A stretch of DNA of 58,913 nt from a bacterium (GTDB taxonomy: Bacteria > Patescibacteriota > Doudnabacteria > UBA920): the NCBI GenBank assembly GCA_021847435.1, contig JAJZRC010000001.1, positions 1 through 58,913 on the forward strand. The letters are read 5' to 3'. Position 1 is the first letter of the stretch; each line of letters begins with the position of its first letter. Below the pieces are notes generated by a model. That model was given only the letters and a program-made list of their open reading frames with translations, did not search any database and was not told the origin of the DNA. Below, piece after piece: positions 22,782 to 58,912 of the stretch. Position numbers and translations under genes: made by a program.

Positions 22782-22983
22782 ATTTAGAAATTATTAATGA
22801 ACTCCCCATCCGCCTTCGCCAAGGCTTCGGCGGATTATTGGCTATTTATAACAAATTATGGACAATAAAAAAATTCCTTTCTTTATCCCCTCAATCGCTT
22901 GAAGGTTGGCACCTTCTCCTAACCGGAAAATCAGGATGGGTTGCCGTCCCGATAATATCGGGAACTCTTGATAAACTTTATTT

Positions 22984-23161
22984 AATTTAGGACTTACGCA
23001 CTGAGCCAAGTTCGAGGCATTTTCCGAGGATTTTTGGAGGCGTAGCCGGGTTACGCCGATAAAAACCGCAAGAAAATAACGAAGAAATGGCCGGAGCCGC
23101 TTTTTATGGGACGGGCTCTGCCCGCCCAAAAAGCGGCGGTGCGTAAGTCCTATAATTAAAG
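22984..23161. repeat. MITE-like palindromic element, copy 1 (178 bp)
   Basis: Terminal inverted repeat TAGGACTTACGCAC / GTGCGTAAGTCCTA. Near-identical to 58682..58912 apart from two internal insertions in the latter. Diverged relative at 41568..41747. Confidence 0.8.
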
Positions 23162-23188: not shown

Positions 23189-23722
23189 TCAACCAAACCA
23201 CTCCGCGTGCCGCCCCAAGCGCCCGCCGCGGATCCCCGCCCCGGCCGGGTCAAAATCCTCCCACTTCCCCTGCAGCCTGACCTGCAAATACTGGTGAGGC
23301 ACGAAGTTTAAAAACACGGCCCTGGCGCGGATGTCATCGGGAGCAAAAAACCGGCTGCCCGCCAGCAGCAAAAAAGACAAATAATTAATGCCCTGGCAAT
23401 ATAAAAATTTTTCAGTATGCCACATTTCTTCCGGGTCCCTCGCAAATAGCCTATGCAAATGGGTGCCCGCCTTAAAGCGGGTGTGTCCCCATTGCTGCAG
23501 GGACTTTTGCAGAATCAAATCATAAGCATGCTGCAAATACTCCCCCGGCCCTGAAGATTTCCTCTCCAGGTTGGTGATTGCCAGCTTAATATCATTAGGC
23601 AACCGGCCGGGCAATACTAATCTTCCGCCAAAACCCATAAACGGCACGGCCAGGCGCAAAAGAAAAAATACAATAAAAAAATAAACCGCGATAACGGCTA
23701 AAACCCAAATTAAAATCTGCAT
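23189..23722 (-). CDS. N-terminally membrane-anchored protein, unknown function
   Basis: 177 aa. TM helix ILIWVLAVIAVYFFIVFFLL, then a soluble domain. Confidence 0.6.
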   Translation of the reverse strand: MQILIWVLAVIAVYFFIVFFLLRLAVPFMGFGGRLVLPGRLPNDIKLAITNLERKSSGPGEYLQHAYDLILQKSLQQWGHTRFKAGTHLHRLFARDPEEMWHTEKFLYCQGINYLSFLLLAGSRFFAPDDIRARAVFLNFVPHQYLQVRLQGKWEDFDPAGAGIRGGRLGRHAEWFG

Positions 23723-25249: not shown

Positions 25250-25420
25250 TTACTTTGTAATTTTCCTGCCTTTGTAATAGCCGCAGGATTTGCACGGCAA
25301 GTGGGGCATTACGGCCCCCCCGCAGTTCTTGCAGACCGCAAAACTGGTGGATTTAAGAGCGTGATGGCTGCGGCGCTGATTGCGGCCGCTTCTGGTTTTA
25401 TGCTTTTTGGGAACTCCCAT
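25250..25420 (-). CDS. rpmF: 50S ribosomal protein L32
   Basis: Hand translation gives MGVPKKHKTRSGRNQRRSHHALKSTSFAVCKNCGGAVMPHLPCKSCGYYKGRKITK, 56 aa. Too short for the ORF track. Confidence 0.9.
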   Translation of the reverse strand: MGVPKKHKTRSGRNQRRSHHALKSTSFAVCKNCGGAVMPHLPCKSCGYYKGRKITK

Positions 25421-25462
25421 GTTTTAGAAAAATTAAAGATTTAAAATTGAAGGATTGGAAAA

Positions 25463-25720
25463 TTACTGCCAACCCAGCTCACAAATTATAGCTAAAAAGT
25501 TCAGCCGCGTCAACTGTGAAGCGGGTAGCTGGTTGCCATTGCGGTTCTGCAAGATTATGTGCAAAGCATCATCTATGCCACTGCCGATTGATTCGCCAAC
25601 TGGCGAACTCTTCTCTTGGGGCTGTATTTTATTTGGGGTTTTTAGCCCACCAATTAACTGAACCGAGTATTCTTTATTTTTGAAACCGCTAAACAGCACT
25701 CTAACACCAGGCTTGCCCAA
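25463..25720 (-). CDS. hypothetical 85-aa protein (TTG start)
   Basis: ORF with GGAG 6 nt upstream of the TTG. I recognise no family. Confidence 0.3.
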   Translation of the reverse strand: MGKPGVRVLFSGFKNKEYSVQLIGGLKTPNKIQPQEKSSPVGESIGSGIDDALHIILQNRNGNQLPASQLTRLNFLAIICELGWQ

Positions 25721-25885
25721 TGTTACTCCGGCTCGATTTTAGCGATTTAGAGTTCAACCGCCCAAAGCCTTAGCCGTGGACTGTTTCGTTTACTATCCAA
25801 AATTATTTTACCCTAAATTTTTCCAAACGAAAAGGGCCAAGGACTCAAGAACCAACGAGGTTCAAGAATCCAAGGCCCCAAGTGC

Positions 25886-26482
25886 TTACTCGCGGACGAG
25901 GACGCAGCAATAGGCGTGGAACTCTTCGCCGGGGCCGCACGGGCCGACGCCGACGCCGCGCCCATCGCCGCAGACGAAGAGATTGCCGCAGAAGAACCGG
26001 CCTGAAGCGTCGAGCCAAATCACGATGTGCGGCGCCTTGCGCTGCTCTTCCGGGAACTTGGCGCCAAACGCCGCCCAACCGGCCGGGGTCGTTGACTTCG
26101 GAAAAGAAAAGTAAATATCCTCCGCAGTCATGACTTTGCCAAGCGGAATGGCACGGACGTGCTCATCAACCGGCTGGAGAATCATGGGGATTTTATTTGG
26201 CGTTTCCGCCAGTCCCCGTTTCACCTTGCAATCCAAAGTGTTGATGGCGTCCGTCGCAGAGCGGATATTGTTGCCGCTGCTGACGTGGAAAATTTTTCCA
26301 GTCGAAGTCTGGACGACCTTCGGCACCCGGATAATGTCATCATCGCTGATGGCCGCCGAGAGAGCAAGGGAAATCTTCTGTGCTGGCCGCTGCCGTTCCC
26401 TCGCCGCTTCCATTACATCTGCGAATTGTCCCAGAAGAGCCGCTTGCTCTTCAAGGGTATACTCAAAATTGCCACTACTCAT
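25886..26482 (-). CDS. orphan 198-aa soluble protein with its own consensus promoter
   Basis: ATG at 26482 (MSSGNFEYTLEEQ...) is preceded by AGGAGG and a 6-nt spacer. Cys/Gly-rich C-terminus (FFCGNLFVCGDGRGVGVGPCGPGEEFHAYCC). I recognise no family. Confidence 0.65.
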   Translation of the reverse strand: MSSGNFEYTLEEQAALLGQFADVMEAARERQRPAQKISLALSAAISDDDIIRVPKVVQTSTGKIFHVSSGNNIRSATDAINTLDCKVKRGLAETPNKIPMILQPVDEHVRAIPLGKVMTAEDIYFSFPKSTTPAGWAAFGAKFPEEQRKAPHIVIWLDASGRFFCGNLFVCGDGRGVGVGPCGPGEEFHAYCCVLVRE

Positions 26483-26617
26483 GGCGCACCTCCTGGGTGT
26501 TGTTGATTGTCGGAAAACCAATGGCTACTCACCAAGGTCTCTGCCCTCGAAATTGAAAGCAGAAAATAACAGCATTACTAATAAGCTGCTATTTTCAAAT
26601 TTCAAAATTAACCCATA

Positions 26618-26646
26618 ATTATACCTGATTTTCTTACTCCTGTCAA
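26618..26646 (-). promoter_or_regulatory. perfect consensus sigma70 promoter for the 198-aa gene
   Basis: Minus strand reads TTGACA (26646..26641), a 17-nt spacer, then TATAAT (26623..26618). It lies about 130 nt upstream of the ATG. Confidence 0.6.
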
Positions 26647-26653
26647 GCGTGCG

Positions 26654-26698
26654 CAAATGAAAGACCGGCGCGCATGCTCTGGTGTTGCGCGCCGGTCT
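26654..26698 (-). terminator. intrinsic terminator closing the micro-ORF cluster
   Basis: 12-bp GC stem AGACCGGCGCGC / GCGCGCCGGTCT, followed on the minus strand by TTCATTTG. Confidence 0.6.
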
Positions 26699-26724
26699 AA
26701 TGCTGCTCTGTCTCCATTTTCCTC

Positions 26725-26955
26725 CTATTCCGTCCTGTTCGGGTACGGGCCCTCATACCGGGCCGGGTGCGCGGGCTTTGTCCGGCGGCCGGAGACCTTG
26801 CTCATGTTCGCAATGGCTGCTAACATGCGTTTCCGCAATGTCTGCAGCCCTCGTTCACCACTTGTACCCTCGATCGGCGGTTCAAGCCGATCGATGTACT
26901 TTTGCCAGCCAGCCAGGTCTTCTGGTCCTGGCAATGATAAAGAAACTCCAGCCAT
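26725..26955 (-). CDS. 76-aa soluble hypothetical protein
   Basis: MAGVSLSLPGPEDLAGWQKYIDRLEPPIEG.... GGAGG sits 7 nt upstream of the ATG. Last ORF before the terminator. Confidence 0.5.
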   Translation of the reverse strand: MAGVSLSLPGPEDLAGWQKYIDRLEPPIEGTSGERGLQTLRKRMLAAIANMSKVSGRRTKPAHPARYEGPYPNRTE

Positions 26956-27043
26956 CTCTCTGCCTCCAACAACGTATGTTTTGTTTCTACCCGCCCCCAT
27001 ATACAAGGGGCAAAAATTGCGCTGGTTGAATGGTAAACCCAAA

Positions 27044-27154
27044 TTACTCGGAAGTAAAGTGGATAACCTGACGGCGGCGCGCCTCGTGGCCCTTGATGCC
27101 CAAAAACAGCACCCAAAGGCCCAAAAGACTGCCGATCAAGACCATGACTTCCAT
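27044..27154 (-). CDS. 36-aa single-TM micro-protein
   Basis: MEVMVLIGSLLGLWVLFLGIKGHEARRRQVIHFTSE. TAGGAGG lies 11 nt upstream. Confidence 0.45.
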   Translation of the reverse strand: MEVMVLIGSLLGLWVLFLGIKGHEARRRQVIHFTSE

Positions 27155-27189
27155 GTGGCGTGACACCTCCTAAAATTCCATCCTCCAGC

Positions 27190-27263
27190 CCGTCCGGCAA
27201 AAACAGGAATGCCGGTTTAAATTTTATCTTGCGATAATATTTAAACCGACTTTCGCCGGACGG
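27190..27263 (-). promoter_or_regulatory. nested long hairpin inside the micro-ORF cluster
   Basis: Outer stem CCGTCCGGC (27190..27198) pairs with GCCGGACGG (27255..27263). Inner stem CGGTTTAAAT (27213..27222) pairs with ATTTAAACCG (27239..27248). Confidence 0.4.
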
Positions 27264-27482
27264 ACTGCAAAAAAGAATCCCATTCCTTTACCTGCAACAA
27301 TTTTACGGGCTAAGGTATGGGGGGCGTATAAACATCCGCAAGGATGCTCAGTGACGCCCGCGCCGGGTTGCCAAAATTACTGCGGCCAACACCATTCCTG
27401 GCAAGCAGAATGATATCAGCGCGAGCCTGGCCCACGCTGGCCAGCCGTTGACGTAAAATAACAGATCTTCCAGAATCCCCAC

Positions 27483-27629
27483 TTACGTCTTGTTTTCCTC
27501 CTTTCCCCGAGGGCCAATCATGCCCACCCAAGTTTCAAACGGCCAGTCCGCCCGCCTGCCGGTGAACCGCTCCTTCAGGAGCGTCCAGCAGATGCCGGCG
27601 GCCAGCGCTGCCGCAATCCCTGCAATCAT
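27483..27629 (-). CDS. ~48-aa single-TM micro-protein (start uncertain)
   Basis: MIAGIAAALAAGICWTLLKERFTGRRADWPFETWVGMIGPRGKEENKT. This is the only convincing part of the 135-aa track ORF. No clear SD. Confidence 0.35.
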   Translation of the reverse strand: MIAGIAAALAAGICWTLLKERFTGRRADWPFETWVGMIGPRGKEENKT

Positions 27630-27670
27630 CACGATTTCCGCGAAGCGGTAGGCCAGCCGGCCTATAGTTC

Positions 27671-27763
27671 TCACAGGCCGCTCCCGTTGATCCGGGTGAG
27701 CGGCGGGAAGCCCTCCTCTGCCATCCGGCTGAGCAGCCGGTAAAGCAAGAAAAACGTCTTCAT
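27671..27763 (-). CDS. 30-aa micro-ORF, translationally coupled
   Basis: MKTFFLLYRLLSRMAEEGFPPLTRINGSGL. Its ATG overlaps the TGA of the preceding ORF (GTATGAAG). GAGGAGG lies 10 nt upstream. Confidence 0.4.
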   Translation of the reverse strand: MKTFFLLYRLLSRMAEEGFPPLTRINGSGL

Positions 27764-27867
27764 ACGCCTCTATCCTCCTCTTCCCAGGGTCCCCAGAATT
27801 TGTTGCAGACCCACGCACCAACGGCCACCAACACGATGGCCGTAAAAATACCGCAAGCTGCTGCCAT
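27760..27867 (-). CDS. 35-aa single-TM micro-protein
   Basis: MAAACGIFTAIVLVAVGAWVCNKFWGPWEEEDRGV. GGGAGG lies 6 nt upstream. Confidence 0.5.
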   Translation of the reverse strand: MAAACGIFTAIVLVAVGAWVCNKFWGPWEEEDRGV

Positions 27868-28124
27868 ACAGCACCTCCCAAACCTGCCAACCAAACTCAT
27901 GGCGCATGTAACACAAATCATGCAGCAAAGAATCTTACTGTCTTTAGCTGCTTGTTACATGCTTCATTATTCATGATACATAATCCAAGTCTTGCCTGAC
28001 AAATTTGGGAGGGCGGCAGAATTGCATGCGCAATTCGTCGCCCGGATGTTTTCCGAGGCAAAAGGAGTATTGGCGGCCTTGCATCTTGAGTGCGCAAGTA
28101 CAGCCTTTTCCAGCGGGTGCGGGT

Positions 28125-28286
28125 TTAGAAACCCAACACTATGCGCCCGACAAACCGGGCGATTCCGTGGAAAAACCAACCCAGCCCCCCGCCGTCAACA
28201 ATGGCGACAATGACAATGCAAATAGGCAATAGCACTGCCACGGGCCAAACTGGCATTGTGTCAGGAACGTAACGCTTCTGTTCCAT
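28125..28286 (-). CDS. 53-aa TM micro-protein
   Basis: MEQKRYVPDTMPVWPVAVLLPICIVIVAIVDGGGLGWFFHGIARFVGRIVLGF. AGGAG lies 6 nt upstream. Confidence 0.55.
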   Translation of the reverse strand: MEQKRYVPDTMPVWPVAVLLPICIVIVAIVDGGGLGWFFHGIARFVGRIVLGF

Positions 28287-28351
28287 GACAATCTCCTTTT
28301 TGGTTTGAACGTTGGCTGTTACCCCGGCCGCTTGTGGCAGCCGCGGGCTTT

Positions 28352-28528
28352 CTACCTGATCCGGACAGGAATCTGGTCCGGGCCTTCAAGGGCCACGACC
28401 GGCCTGGTCCTCCAGTCTATCTCCTCAATGTAACCCGCGGCCAAAGCCGTAAGGGCTGTAATGAAAAGACACGCCAGAATGGTCTGCCCGATGGCATCCA
28501 TCCAGCTTCGGAAAAAATACGTCTTCAT
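28352..28528 (-). CDS. 58-aa single-TM micro-protein
   Basis: MKTYFFRSWMDAIGQTILACLFITALTALAAGYIEEIDWRTRPVVALEGPDQIPVRIR. TAGGAGG lies 6 nt upstream. Confidence 0.55.
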   Translation of the reverse strand: MKTYFFRSWMDAIGQTILACLFITALTALAAGYIEEIDWRTRPVVALEGPDQIPVRIR

Positions 28529-28644
28529 CTTACTCCTCCTAAATTTTCACTCACACTCCTGAAAAATACTTTTTTCAAAAGTCTAAGTAAAAATGTACTT
28601 GGCTTGGACCTGGGTGGAAGACCGCCGCAGGCTCGGCCTTAAGC

Positions 28645-28752
28645 TTACGGGATTACCGTTCCTGCCGCAGCCGCCGCATCGGGCAGCTGGGCAAAAAGAT
28701 ACATTACAGCCAAATACCAGGTCCCAAGCAGCAGGGCCGTTGCGGCCGACAT
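28645..28752 (-). CDS. 35-aa hydrophobic micro-ORF
   Basis: MSAATALLLGTWYLAVMYLFAQLPDAAAAAGTVIP. The SD is weak. Confidence 0.3.
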   Translation of the reverse strand: MSAATALLLGTWYLAVMYLFAQLPDAAAAAGTVIP

Positions 28753-28774
28753 GTTACGACCGTGGAGCTTCCTG

Positions 28775-28852
28775 CTATTTGGCATGCTGGAACCCCCAGA
28801 CGAAGAACCCAACAATAACCGCTACCCAAAAGGCCCACACGATTTTTTTCAT
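28775..28852 (-). CDS. 25-aa single-TM micro-ORF
   Basis: MKKIVWAFWVAVIVGFFVWGFQHAK. Only a weak, close purine tract (AAAGGGAA) lies upstream. Confidence 0.35.
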   Translation of the reverse strand: MKKIVWAFWVAVIVGFFVWGFQHAK

Positions 28853-29351
28853 GGTTCCCTTTCTCGCTCGCAATCCCCCTTTACCAAAGGTTTTGCGAAA
28901 ACACATCAATCGGCAAAACTTGCCGCCTAATCTGCTTCCGCAAAACTACAATTCATATTAAACGCCAAAAACAAAGTTTGGTCAATTGCCGAAGGTTGTG
29001 CCAAAGCTTGCGGACTTAAAATTCAAGCAGGCCCTGCCCCAAATGGGTCCGTAGGCCCAGGGGGCCCGCCGCAGGCGGACATAAAATATTTGCCTCTTAA
29101 ACCCGCAAGCAGTACCGCAAAACAAGGTACAAAAAAACCGCATACTGCTTACAGGAGAATCTAAAGAAAAATTATTCTTGTAAACAGCCGTGCGGCTTTT
29201 ATAGCGCCCCCAATCCGGTATTAGCGAAATCAGGAGCATGTGGAAATGCTTTATAATCCGCGAGTTTCCCTGTAAAAAACCGGCGGATTTAACAAAGTTT
29301 TTAAACGACCCAAATCGGATACTAATCCAGCTTGACCATATAGTATACACC

Positions 29352-29379
29352 AAAAACGCCATCTTGTCAAGAGATGGCG
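29352..29379 (-). terminator. intrinsic terminator after the 81-aa gene
   Basis: Minus strand reads CGCCATCT-CTTGACA-AGATGGCG followed by TTTTT. Confidence 0.6.
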
Positions 29380-29414
29380 AATTATATAACAAAAAAGCTT
29401 TTATTTAAGCCGGA

Positions 29415-29660
29415 CTACTCCCCTTCTAATATTGCGCTTAAATCATCACGCAGATTTTCCAGCATTAAAACCGCTTCGTTTTGGTCCCTTTCCCAAACTT
29501 GGCGTATTTTCTCCACGCGCGCCAAAAACTCCGGATATTGGACCATGGTTTGCTTTAAAATCAACAATTGCCGATCGGAAAACTCCAGCCCGCCGCTGCA
29601 AAATTCAGCCAAATTTTCCGCCTCCGCTGAAGTATTGCGCCCGGATTCAATTTCGCCCAT
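29415..29660 (-). CDS. 81-aa helical hypothetical protein
   Basis: MGEIESGRNTSAEAENLAEF ... LENLRDDLSAILEGE. I used the internal Met of the 94-aa track ORF. Downstream of groEL and followed by a terminator. Confidence 0.55.
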   Translation of the reverse strand: MGEIESGRNTSAEAENLAEFCSGGLEFSDRQLLILKQTMVQYPEFLARVEKIRQVWERDQNEAVLMLENLRDDLSAILEGE

Positions 29661-29792
29661 AATTTTAAACTTAATGCTTATGCCCCAATTATAACACAAA
29701 GGCCCTGTCCTTTGCCGCTTGAAATGGCGGACAAAAAATAGGGCCTTCCATATTAACTAAATGCTTGCTGCTTAATACTGCCTGCTAATCAA

Positions 29793-31457
29793 TTAATAAT
29801 CCATACCGCCCATGCCTCCGGACATGCCGCCGGCCGTGGCCGGAGCTTTGGGCTCGGGCTTGTCTACCACAATGGCTTCGCTGGTTACCAGGGTGGAGGC
29901 GATGGACACCGCGTGTTCCAAAGCCAGGCGGGTAACCTTGACCGGATCAACGATCCCGGCTTTCATCATATCCACCATGCCGGCTTTCCAGTCTTTGTCG
30001 TTATGGCTGGCAAAATCAAATCCCAGGTTTTCGCCGGATCCATTTTGGATTTCGTGCAAAATGCCCGTAACTTCCACGCCGGAGTTGGCCGCAATCTGGC
30101 GCAAAGGAGCTTCCAAGGCGGTACGCACCACGCGCACCCCGGCCCGCTCGGCATCGTTCAAGCCGCTGCCAAAGGCATCCAGCTTGGGAGCAATGCGTGC
30201 CAAAGCCGCGCCGCCTCCGGCCACAATCCCTTCTTCCACGGCCGCTTTGGTGGCGTTGAGCGCGTCTTCAATCTTGAATTTCTTGGCCTTCATTTCGGTT
30301 TCGGTAAACGCGCCGACTTTAATAACGCCCACGCCCCCGGACAAGCGGGCCATGCGTTCCTGCAACTTTTCCTTGTCGTAATCGGAAACGGAATTCTTGT
30401 GCTCGGACTTTATCTGGCCCACGCGCGCCTCAATGGCCTGCTTGTCGCCCTGGCCGTCTACAATGGTAGTGTATTCCTTGGTGGCAATAACTTTGCGGGC
30501 GCGGCCTAAAGCGCTCAGCTCAGCCTTGTCCAGTTTCAAGCCCAAATCTTCGGTGACTACCTGGCCGCCGGTCAAGATGGCAATGTCCTGCAGCATATCC
30601 TTGCGCCTGTCGCCAAAACCGGGGGCTTTTACCGCCAGCACGTTAAAGGTGCCGCGCAGCTTGTTGAGCACAAAGGTAGCCAAAGCCTCGCCTTCGATTT
30701 CATCGGCAATTATTACCAAATCCTTCTTGCCGCTCTGGGCGACTTTTTCCAAAAGGGGCAATACGTCTTGCACGGAAGAAACTTTTTTGTCGGTAATCAA
30801 AATATACGGGTCTTCCCACACGGCTTCCATGCGCTCGCTGTTGGTGACCATGTACGGGTTTACATAACCCTTGTCAAAACGCATGCCTTTGACCACTTCC
30901 TTTTCCATGCCCGTTGTCTGGCCTTCTTCCACGGTAATTACGCCGTCATGGCCCACTTCTTCCATGGCTTCGGCAATCAACTTGCCCACTTCGCTGTCTA
31001 GAGAAGCTATGGTCGCGACCTGCTGGATCTCTTCCTTGTTCTTAATGTCCTTTTTTACCTTTTTTAATTCTTCCACCACGAACTGGACCGCTTTGTCCAT
31101 GCCTTTTTTAATGTCATTGGCCCGGGCGGAATTCAAAGCCACGGCCCCAATGCCTTCTTCAATCATTTTTTGGGCCAGGACCGTGGCCGTGGTGGTGCCG
31201 TCTCCGGCCTGCTCATTGGTCTTGTTGGCGACTTCCTGGATTAAAGACGCGCCCACGTTTTCAAACTTGTCTTCCAATTCAATATCCTTGGCTACGGTCA
31301 CGCCGTCATCGGTAATGGTCGGGCTGCCGAACGACTTGTCCAGAATAACCGCTTTGCCCGTAGGGCCCAAAGTCACCTTGACCACGTTAGCCGCTTTGTC
31401 TACTCCGGCCTTAATGGCCTGCTTGGCTTCAAAGCCGTATTTGATAATTTTTGCCAT
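29793..31457 (-). CDS. groEL: chaperonin GroEL
   Basis: 554 aa. [12 protein letters not shown] is present. The C-terminal tail is [12 protein letters not shown]. Confidence 0.97.
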
Positions 31458-34544: not shown

Positions 34545-34760
34545 TTATTGAAGCAATCCGCCATAGGCGGAAGTCAAGCTTTTTAAGGCAAACGGGATGG
34601 CAAACAGCGCGGCCAAAAGCGGCAACACTACCAGTACAACGGTAATGTACATGGACCACTTCATGTAATTTTTCGTTTTGCGCGTATTTTCGTAAATTTC
34701 CGCGAGCAGCTGCTCAGTGGACATTGTTTGTTGCGGGGCTTGATTTTGGTTATTTTCCAT
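34545..34760 (-). CDS. small membrane protein
   Basis: 71 aa with one long hydrophobic segment (MYITVVLVVLPLLAALFAIPFAL). Confidence 0.6.
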   Translation of the reverse strand: MENNQNQAPQQTMSTEQLLAEIYENTRKTKNYMKWSMYITVVLVVLPLLAALFAIPFALKSLTSAYGGLLQ

Positions 34761-58580: not shown

Positions 58581-58681
58581 TGACACAGGCGATGGGGCGG
58601 ATGCGAATCGAACGCTCTAACTTCACTCGCACCAATTCCCCTTACAACAAAATTATTTTTCTCCGAATGTAATTCCAATTA

Positions 58682-58912
58682 AATTTAGGACTTACGCACT
58701 GAGCCAAGTTCGACCCGCTTCGCCGGAGCTTCAGCGAGGCGAGGGCATTTTCCGAGCCTGCCTGCCGGCAGGCAGGGATTTTTGGAGGCGTAGCCGGGCT
58801 ACGCCGATAAAAACCGAGAGACGAAATAACGAAGAAATTGGCCGGAGCCGCTTTTTATGGGGCGGGCTCTGCCCGCCCAAAAAGCGGCGGTGCGTAAGTC
58901 CTATAATTAAAG
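58682..58912. repeat. MITE-like element, copy 3 (231 bp)
   Basis: Same termini as copy 1. Carries two extra internal segments: CCCGCTTCGCCGGAGCTTCAGCGAGGCGA and the palindrome CCTGCCTGCCGGCAGGCAGG. Confidence 0.8.

Follow-up and report, generated by a model that had tools for sequence, protein, structure and literature searches.

The contig JAJZRC010000001.1 (assembly GCA_021847435.1), analysed here over positions 1 to 58,913 and referred to as the window, carries between groEL and rpmF a cluster of ten open reading frames (ORFs) of 25-76 amino acids, which occupy a ~2.2-kb stretch of the minus strand (28852-26725) downstream of a structured small RNA of ~200 nt (29131-29337, minus). Comparison with related genomes leaves us highly confident that the cluster is a real coding operon. 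The initial annotation of this interval listed nine micro-ORFs, all of which are present in the sequence at the starts that it gave; it missed a tenth, which begins with GTG at 27482, directly after a TAA stop codon, and encodes 44 amino acids.

The ten micro-ORFs and their conservation

Only three genomes carry most of the cluster: that of the window, a related genome found through the relative of the last ORF, o76 (loci L009-L012), and a third one, L190, reached by a profile search with the o53 family. The DNA of L009 aligns to positions 29371-26660 of the window at 75-78% identity, then continues straight into rpmF, and all ten ORFs keep their frame, start and stop there. Substitutions between the window and L009 number 110, 91 and 160 at codon positions 1, 2 and 3, and the pooled ratio of nonsynonymous to synonymous divergence (dN/dS) is 0.31 (dS 0.73, dN 0.23), while reading the DNA in either shifted frame yields 0.99 and 1.13; the in-frame ratio is 0.35 for the window versus L190 and 0.33 for L009 versus L190. 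Conservation of the frames in relatives, which the initial annotation had proposed as a check, is thus observed, and the indels within the ORFs are multiples of 3 (3, 9, 12, 3 and 3 nt relative to L009), with one further gap of 2 nt at a stop codon. In the same pair of genomes, the housekeeping genes nusB, hup and rpmF have a dS of 0.5-0.9 and a dN of 0.00-0.05. Since the dS of the micro-ORFs is like that of housekeeping genes, we conclude that they are conserved at the protein level; their dN is ~5-50 times that of the neighbouring housekeeping genes. In a permutation that placed the observed number of substitutions randomly, and counted an ORF as retained if it remained open and its amino-acid identity was no lower than observed, P was below 0.02 for nine of the ten ORFs. 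For the whole set, the probability of remaining open at ~24% substitutions, obtained by multiplying the values of the single ORFs, is ~4e-5. By a codon-frame score for which the long genes of the window served as training set, every micro-ORF is positive in its proposed frame, compared with only 1% of out-of-frame pieces of real genes. L190 shows the same groES-groEL ... rpmF-nusB synteny at ~70% DNA identity and has nine of the ten ORFs, with the same type of start (ATG or GTG) in eight of these nine, as well as two additional small membrane ORFs. The micro-ORFs had been described as invisible to the ORF track, which is not the case for standard gene calling: the public record of the contig calls six of them, and eight appear among the gene calls of one genome or more.

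The ORFs are described here in the order of transcription, all on the minus strand. The first, o25 (28775-28852; 25 amino acids, MKKIVWAFWVAVIVGFFVWGFQHAK), has one transmembrane (TM) segment and is kept in L009 and in L190, where it starts with GTG; its dN/dS is 0.11 in the comparison with L009 and 0.74 in that with L190, with a permutation P of 0.0045 and a codon-frame log-likelihood ratio of +6.1. It is followed by o35a (28645-28752; 35 amino acids), which is hydrophobic in its N-terminal half and has the same ATG and TAA in three genomes, with 58-63% amino-acid identity; lacking a clear Shine-Dalgarno (SD) motif, it is the weakest member of the set. The o58 product (28352-28528; 58 amino acids, AGGAGG SD motif) has one TM segment and a charged tail of 26 amino acids, a dN/dS of 0.40 and 0.32, and homologues with invariant FF.S..A and P....EGP residues in L009, L190 and the distant contigs L161 and L141. 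It also gave weak matches (E ~3e-4) to repeats of two proteins of 628 and 719 amino acids, one of which carries beta-propeller and BNR matches; the match overlaps the hydrophobic helix and was judged to be due to chance. In o53 (28125-28286; 53 amino acids), one TM segment precedes an amphipathic GGGLGWFF..RFVGR segment; its dN/dS is 0.36 and 0.23, homologues are present in L009, L190 and the distant contigs L161 and L153, and three more database entries are related, all of them without annotation.

The next four ORFs form a block of genes with overlapping or abutting ends. The first of them, o35b (27760-27867; 35 amino acids, GGGAGG SD motif), encodes one TM segment and an acidic tail; it is kept in L009 and L190 (P = 0.018), with a weak match in the distant contig L013. 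The ATG of o30 (27671-27763; 30 amino acids) overlaps the stop codon of o35b (ATGA), and its amphipathic product has no TM segment; dN/dS is 0.21 (P = 0.0001), and a FLLYRLL.RMA..GFP core is retained in L190. For o63 (27483-27674; 63 amino acids, one TM segment and a 30-amino-acid tail), the initial annotation had given a 48-amino-acid ORF starting at 27629. That frame is present, but GTG at 27674 is a better start, as it overlaps the stop of o30 (GTGA), is a GTG in three genomes and agrees with products of 63 and 69 amino acids in public gene calls; dN/dS is 0.27 and 0.21. The overlooked ORF, o44 (27348-27482), follows with its GTG directly after the TAA of o63, and encodes one TM segment and a C-terminal RRGRH; it has a GTG start in three genomes and a dN/dS of 0.23 and 0.29 (P = 0.001). 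Beyond the block lie o36 (27044-27154; 36 amino acids), with an N-terminal TM segment and a basic tail, kept in L009 and L190 (dN/dS 0.44 and 0.31, P = 0.015, codon-frame log-likelihood ratio +17.4), and finally o76 (26725-26955; 76 amino acids), which is soluble and rich in proline and arginine. Its sole database relative is the L009 homologue (67% identity; dN/dS 0.21, P < 5e-5), and an unrelated ORF of 110 amino acids takes its place in L190.

The micro-proteins had been described as mostly single hydrophobic helices, and by Kyte-Doolittle hydrophobicity over a 17-residue segment eight of the ten have one such segment: seven, of 25-63 amino acids, score 2.1-2.9, and o35a is borderline. SD-led ORFs with a hydrophobic segment of at least 2.0 are concentrated here, with seven in the cluster and two elsewhere outside long ORFs in 59 kb. 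The sole other clear SD-led small membrane ORF outside long genes (34545-34760, minus) encodes 71 amino acids with a C-terminal helix. These properties make it probable that the micro-proteins are inserted in the membrane. According to the positive-inside rule, the distribution of charges makes o25, o58 and o35b look N-in/C-out, and o44 and o36 N-out/C-in.

Signals, RNA structures and the conserved small RNA

A GGAGG-type SD motif is found 5-13 nt upstream of about eight of the ten ORFs and is conserved in the comparisons with L009 and L190; the initial annotation had attributed such a motif to most ORFs, which holds except for o25 and o35a, where it is weak or absent. The first four ORFs, o25, o35a, o58 and o53, are separated by spacers. 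Within o35b-o30-o63-o44, the ATGA, GTGA and TAAGTG junctions are identical letter for letter in L009, and the o63-o44 pair is still overlapping in L190. Given these junctions, the central four genes would be translationally coupled and therefore made together, in fixed proportions and in an obligatory succession. Promoters and terminators were identified as consensus matches only. The candidate promoter of the operon, P2 (28957-28985, minus; TTGACC-17-TTTAAT), has both hexamers kept in L009 and failed the scan rule for the -10 hexamer. A 10/12 promoter-like site (28002-27973) lies in the loosely conserved spacer between o53 and o35b. The cluster ends at the hairpin T2 (26662-26698, minus), which has a 12-bp GC stem and a T-rich tail; the terminator that the initial annotation placed here is real, and in L009 an A-T pair of the stem is replaced by G-C in a compensatory change. 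T2 was not listed by the terminator scan because its loop is 13 nt long. Directly after it comes a consensus promoter, P3 (26618-26646, minus; TTGACA-17-TATAAT, 12/12 match), which we take as the limit of the unit on its downstream side; L009 has this TTGACA immediately before rpmF.

The 193-nt spacer between o44 and o36 (27155-27347, minus) folds into a small hairpin followed by a long stem of ~50 bp, with a predicted energy of -87.7 kcal/mol (z = -8.1), and is 83% identical to L009. Three strain variants from one run lie within it, at 27239, 27259 and 27289, and the one at 27259 changes a C-G pair of the long stem into U-G; the assembly graph of the variant-bearing run breaks between 27209 and 27696. 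More generally, identity to L009 is 92% in the small RNA and 83-85% in three spacers, compared with 68-80% in the ORFs. From this higher conservation of the non-coding parts we conclude that RNA-level and protein-level functions co-exist at this locus.

The small RNA comprises a variable 5' part, a 13-bp hairpin (GCUCCUGAUUUCG..CGGAUUGGGGGC) that is almost invariant in the alignment, and a long hairpin followed by a U-run. Its candidate promoter, P1 (29342-29370, minus; TTGACA-17-TATACT, 11/12 match), is identical in L009, while the DNA directly upstream is only 47% identical. The -35 hexamer of P1 sits in the loop of the terminator hairpin of an upstream small ORF (29379-29357, minus), the stem of which shows a compensatory change in L009. 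In the alignment of the small RNA, 97% of cells are paired, and sliding the partners lowers this to 34-55%; compensatory changes occur in nine pairs, and none of 500 shuffles attains such values, with the reservation that the first hairpin, not the second, is partly fixed by the search pattern. A covariance model finds one match in the window (29243-29113, 106 bits) and 15 further genome loci (L013-L018, L021-L028 and L031), always on the rpmF strand. The DNA of ~29240-29130 also matches sequence upstream of rpmF in nine species-level genomes, and a pattern search returned ~35 more distinct genuine copies in metagenome contigs, amid many chance matches in GC-rich DNA; the motif was not found in viral contigs. 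Among species-representative genomes, 16 loci carrying the RNA were identified.

Several other identities of this RNA were considered. Some lineages carry it as a ~120-nt gene that is flanked by a promoter and a terminator of its own and lies 100-160 nt before rpmF. A leader of rpmF is ruled out, as a terminator and a second consensus promoter separate the two where they are adjacent; because it has its own terminator and rpmF a second promoter, we regard it as a separate gene. The core is not a small ORF either (MLLISL...), since its loop varies by 1-2 nt and its stems change in a compensatory manner. The Rfam covariance models contain no family for it in the window and 14 related loci, where they detect tRNAs and SAM riboswitches elsewhere. 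A ribosomal or other known RNA at the locus was likewise rejected, since the only Rfam matches in the window are three tRNAs, and 25400-29800 has none even with the threshold relaxed to E <= 1; transfer-messenger RNA, RNase P RNA, signal-recognition-particle RNA, 6S RNA and group II intron domain V are unsupported by ARAGORN or Rfam. Some forms are longer, with a long stem added on the 5' side, a UUUACAGGAGAA loop, and hairpins that consist of AUCUGUG or CGCUGA repeats. These comparisons point to a previously unclassified conserved small RNA, with a putative promoter and terminator of its own, located between groEL and rpmF across a branch of the Patescibacteria.

Between the small RNA and o25 lies a second RNA module, domain B (29006-29106, minus), in which a stem (GCGGGUUUAAG / CUUAAGUCCGC) surrounds a GC-rich hairpin. 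Many related loci contain the module (GUGGGCCUAAGGAGGCA...UUAGACCCAC) with other letters in the stem, and it is part of a fold with z = -3.9. No conserved ORF was found within it in the related loci compared. It contains an SD-like AAGGAGG that is partly buried in the stem. Domain B could be either the 3' domain of the small RNA or the 5' leader of the operon.

The slot between the small RNA and rpmF, and its surroundings

The slot between the small RNA and rpmF is hypervariable, and related lineages hold other chains of small membrane ORFs there. Depending on the locus, 222 to 3786 nt lie between the small RNA and rpmF, with the maximum in the window. In 23 related slots (36.6 kb) we counted 43 SD-led small TM ORFs on the sense strand, whereas the antisense strand has none; at least ten lineages have membrane micro-ORFs downstream of the small RNA, and chains with overlapping or abutting stop and start codons are also present in L013, L153, L116 and L164. 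In slots without micro-ORFs, the first gene after the small RNA encodes a signal-peptide or membrane-anchor protein in the lineages inspected.

The initial annotation had described the cluster as a GC-rich island and suggested testing whether it is an insertion. With a GC content of 0.539, compared with a mean of 0.510 for the 36 long ORFs of the window (range 0.42-0.57) and 0.46 for spacers, the cluster is GC-rich only relative to the adjoining AT-rich spacers. It is an island neither by composition nor by recent transfer; at least three related genomes share its synteny, and others do so in part.

A contig of the metagenome-assembled genome GCA_027327465.1 has the same sequence as the window, and runs containing this DNA come from mine drainage, sediment and groundwater; look-ups of the exact rpmF and groES proteins retrieved no record. 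By ribosomal protein L32, the nearest species-level genomes are Patescibacteria, mostly labelled Candidatus Doudnabacteria, several being auto-labelled 'Saccharibacteria'. Upstream of the small RNA lie, on the minus strand, groES (31920-31567), groEL (31457-29793) and an acidic helical ORF of 81 amino acids (29660-29415), which is probably related to an ORF in the corresponding position of L141, matches L134 weakly, and is replaced by unrelated small ORFs in other lineages. Downstream, a gene of 198 codons (26482-25886, minus) separates the cluster from rpmF (25420-25250, minus), which is followed by nusB and hup. The 1.2 kb that hold this gene in the window (26660-25421) are missing from L009 and L190, its two closest relatives. 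The 198-amino-acid protein belongs to a family of 15 members in which the last ~35 residues are hypervariable. Its L008 homologue has, at its 3' end, a repeat with a template copy (1903-2020 and 2335-2452) beside a bAvd gene, and the 16 mismatches between repeat and template are all at adenines of the template, the hallmark of a diversity-generating retroelement. The 59-kb window itself contains no template copy for the variable repeat of the 198-codon gene. A near-consensus promoter (TTGACG-17-TATAAT; 25485-25513, minus) lies just upstream of rpmF, inside a spurious-looking 85-amino-acid ORF of the public gene calls (25463-25720). Elsewhere in the window, a repeat of ~137 nt with 95% identity occurs at two distant sites (58776-58912 and 23028-23161, also 58678-58713 and 22980-23015), one copy lying near tRNA-Val and the other adjoining an ORF of 177 codons (23189-23722).

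A possible envelope module and the alternatives

The best explanation of these observations, to which we give somewhat less than an even chance, is that the locus is a polycistronic operon for ten micro-proteins, which would form a co-assembled, lineage-specific envelope module of small membrane proteins. We infer the membrane insertion, the co-assembly, the envelope role and the driving promoter. Transcription would proceed from a sigma-70-type promoter downstream of the separate small-RNA gene, or by read-through from that gene, and would end at the T2 hairpin, so that the ten micro-proteins would be made from one or two messages. Eight of the peptides are expected to insert as single helices in mixed orientations, in the company of the 30-residue amphipathic peptide and the 76-residue soluble protein. 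The conserved RNA structures between genes probably determine how stable the mRNA is, or how much the parts of the operon yield relative to one another, and the module would be fast-evolving, yet under purifying selection. Joint action at the membrane is the simplest explanation for purifying selection on short, fast-evolving products combined with strictly conserved coupling junctions. Among the functions offered by the initial annotation, subunits of an unrecognised membrane complex would be the one most compatible with the anatomy of the locus; toxins, holins and bacteriocins are argued against by the coupled polycistron and by the lack of partner genes and of family matches. That the products belong to a co-assembled envelope module rather than being toxin or conflict peptides is a preference that we hold with a little more reserve than the explanation as a whole.

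Known small membrane proteins offer partial parallels. AcrZ, MgtS, KdpF and CydX are small bitopic membrane proteins of bacteria, and resemble the products described here in having fewer than 60 amino acids, one hydrophobic helix and a ribosome-binding site of their own, and in being often missed by gene callers. They have no sequence relationship to these micro-proteins, and they differ in being encoded by single genes beside, or acting on, a large partner, whereas here ten genes form an operon between groESL and rpmF with no partner nearby; in particular, no transporter or oxidase gene that could provide a partner for KdpF/CydX/AcrZ-type subunits is adjacent. A parallel in organization is psbEFLJ of photosystem II, a micro-ORF operon for subunits of a membrane complex, in which several tiny single-helix proteins are encoded head to tail and made together. 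However, the micro-proteins of the window evolve fast and differ between close lineages, and we know of no photosystem-like complex, nor would we expect one, in Patescibacteria.

Membrane-damaging toxins or holin-like pore formers, as in a type I toxin-antitoxin-like system or a lysis or abortive-infection cassette, silenced by the conserved RNA structures, are an unlikely alternative that nevertheless fits several properties. Like the type I toxin peptides Hok, TisB, Fst and Ldr, the products are small, with a single hydrophobic helix and a charged tail (seven are hydrophobic single-helix peptides shorter than ~60 amino acids and an eighth is borderline), and the ORFs are flanked by very stable, strongly conserved RNA structures. 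Type I toxin mRNAs are known for stable RNA structures. The fast evolution and patchy distribution of the micro-ORFs also fit this reading. In contrast with the usual single toxin gene with its own promoter, however, ten genes are chained here with conserved coupling junctions, their strong ribosome-binding sites are exposed in the sequence, and the plus strand has only weak, 9/12 promoter-like sites and no evident gene for an antisense RNA antitoxin. Searches with the ten micro-proteins in Pfam, PHROGs, NCBIfam and PADLOC returned noise only, and specifically no type I toxin family in Pfam or NCBIfam at E <= 1. In agreement with the initial annotation, which had noted the lack of integrase and phage genes at the cluster, no endolysin or phage gene is adjacent, the neighbours being groES, groEL, rpmF and nusB; nor was similar DNA present in 50,697 phage records or in the plasmid collection, or any relative in peptide-pattern scans of viral contigs with o76 and o58. 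These failed tests of membership may be compatible with peptides that work like a membrane-active peptide. About equally unlikely is a cell-surface arms-race module, made of bacteriocin-like peptides with immunity peptides, or of phage-exclusion or host-contact factors of an epibiont. It would account for the high dN and the turnover of genes within a conserved slot, for the membrane or signal-peptide protein encoded by the first gene after the small RNA in every inspected lineage with a slot gene, and for the homologue of a diversity-generating retroelement target next door, and it agrees with the predominance of membrane or surface proteins among those enriched in these bacteria (PMC6744442). 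Against it, no double-glycine or cleavable signal leader is readable in the ten sequences, no transporter, peptidase or other export or processing gene appears in the gene list in the operon or within ~7-10 kb on either side, PADLOC gives no match, and a dN/dS of 0.2-0.4 denotes purifying, not diversifying, selection.

Two further readings dispense with a protein module. One long structured transcript could be the main product, with ORFs that are young, weakly useful or incidental proto-genes, a reading that the greater conservation of spacers and leader, the extreme folds, the covariation in the small RNA and the weak constraint on o35a and o25 would favour. We consider it improbable, more so than either peptide-weapon model, in view of synonymous sites that have diverged as in housekeeping genes, which leaves no extra RNA-level constraint inside the ORFs, of the frame-specific selection, starts, SD motifs and coupling junctions that hold in three genomes, and of the small RNA being terminated on its own and, elsewhere, forming a separate 120-nt gene followed by another promoter. 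The micro-ORFs could also be fragments of one or a few larger genes, as the long overlapping ORFs of odd composition on both strands might suggest, and the initial annotation had raised such decay as a case to check. This can be practically dismissed: the long ORFs, which had already been judged implausible, are spurious because they are interrupted at different places in the relative, searches with o76, o58 and o53 return only similarly small proteins of 51-90 amino acids, and the small ORFs, each with its own ribosome-binding site, are under purifying selection. A different, rather improbable proposal, which we rank between the arms-race module and the RNA product, joins RNA and proteins: the small RNA, with its lineage-specific extensions, and the changing set of micro-proteins would be one functional unit specific to one branch of the ultra-small Patescibacteria. 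Such a unit may be an RNA-protein particle bound to the membrane, comparable to OLE RNA and its partners, the membrane proteins OapA/B/C (PMC9723947, PMC12265935), or the RNA may govern micro-protein production. The layout is indeed of the OLE type, a conserved structured RNA gene directly adjoining genes for small membrane proteins. Here, however, the RNA has its own terminator and stands alone before rpmF in some lineages, it has no match to the OLE covariance model of Rfam 15 at the gathering score or at E <= 1, or to another Rfam family, and no Oap homologue was found with Pfam.

Returning to the co-assembled envelope module, several observations weigh against it. No homologue of the micro-proteins has an assigned function, and it is the coupling by itself that suggests co-assembly. 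The spacers are more conserved than the ORFs, and the RNA-level function that co-exists with the coding one could be the main one. The turnover of gene content, with o76 absent from L190 and two extra ORFs present there, fits accessory or conflict genes equally well. Among the members, o25 is weakly constrained in the more distant comparison, with L190, and o35a lacks individual support (dN/dS 0.62-0.75, P = 0.12). Finally, three metatranscriptomes of the same study contained only cross-matching groEL and tRNA fragments of other organisms.

Patescibacteria have tiny genomes, in which much of the gene content has no assigned function. For their annotation, this locus indicates that a tenth or more of a 'gene-free' gap of 3 kb can be selected micro-protein genes, partly seen by standard calling. 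For their evolution, it provides a fixed slot, between the small RNA and rpmF, that expands from ~0.2 to 3.8 kb as genes for small membrane proteins are acquired and exchanged, and thus a defined place to study the origin and turnover of such genes. Ten short peptides and a small RNA of ~200 nt can be synthesised for direct testing.

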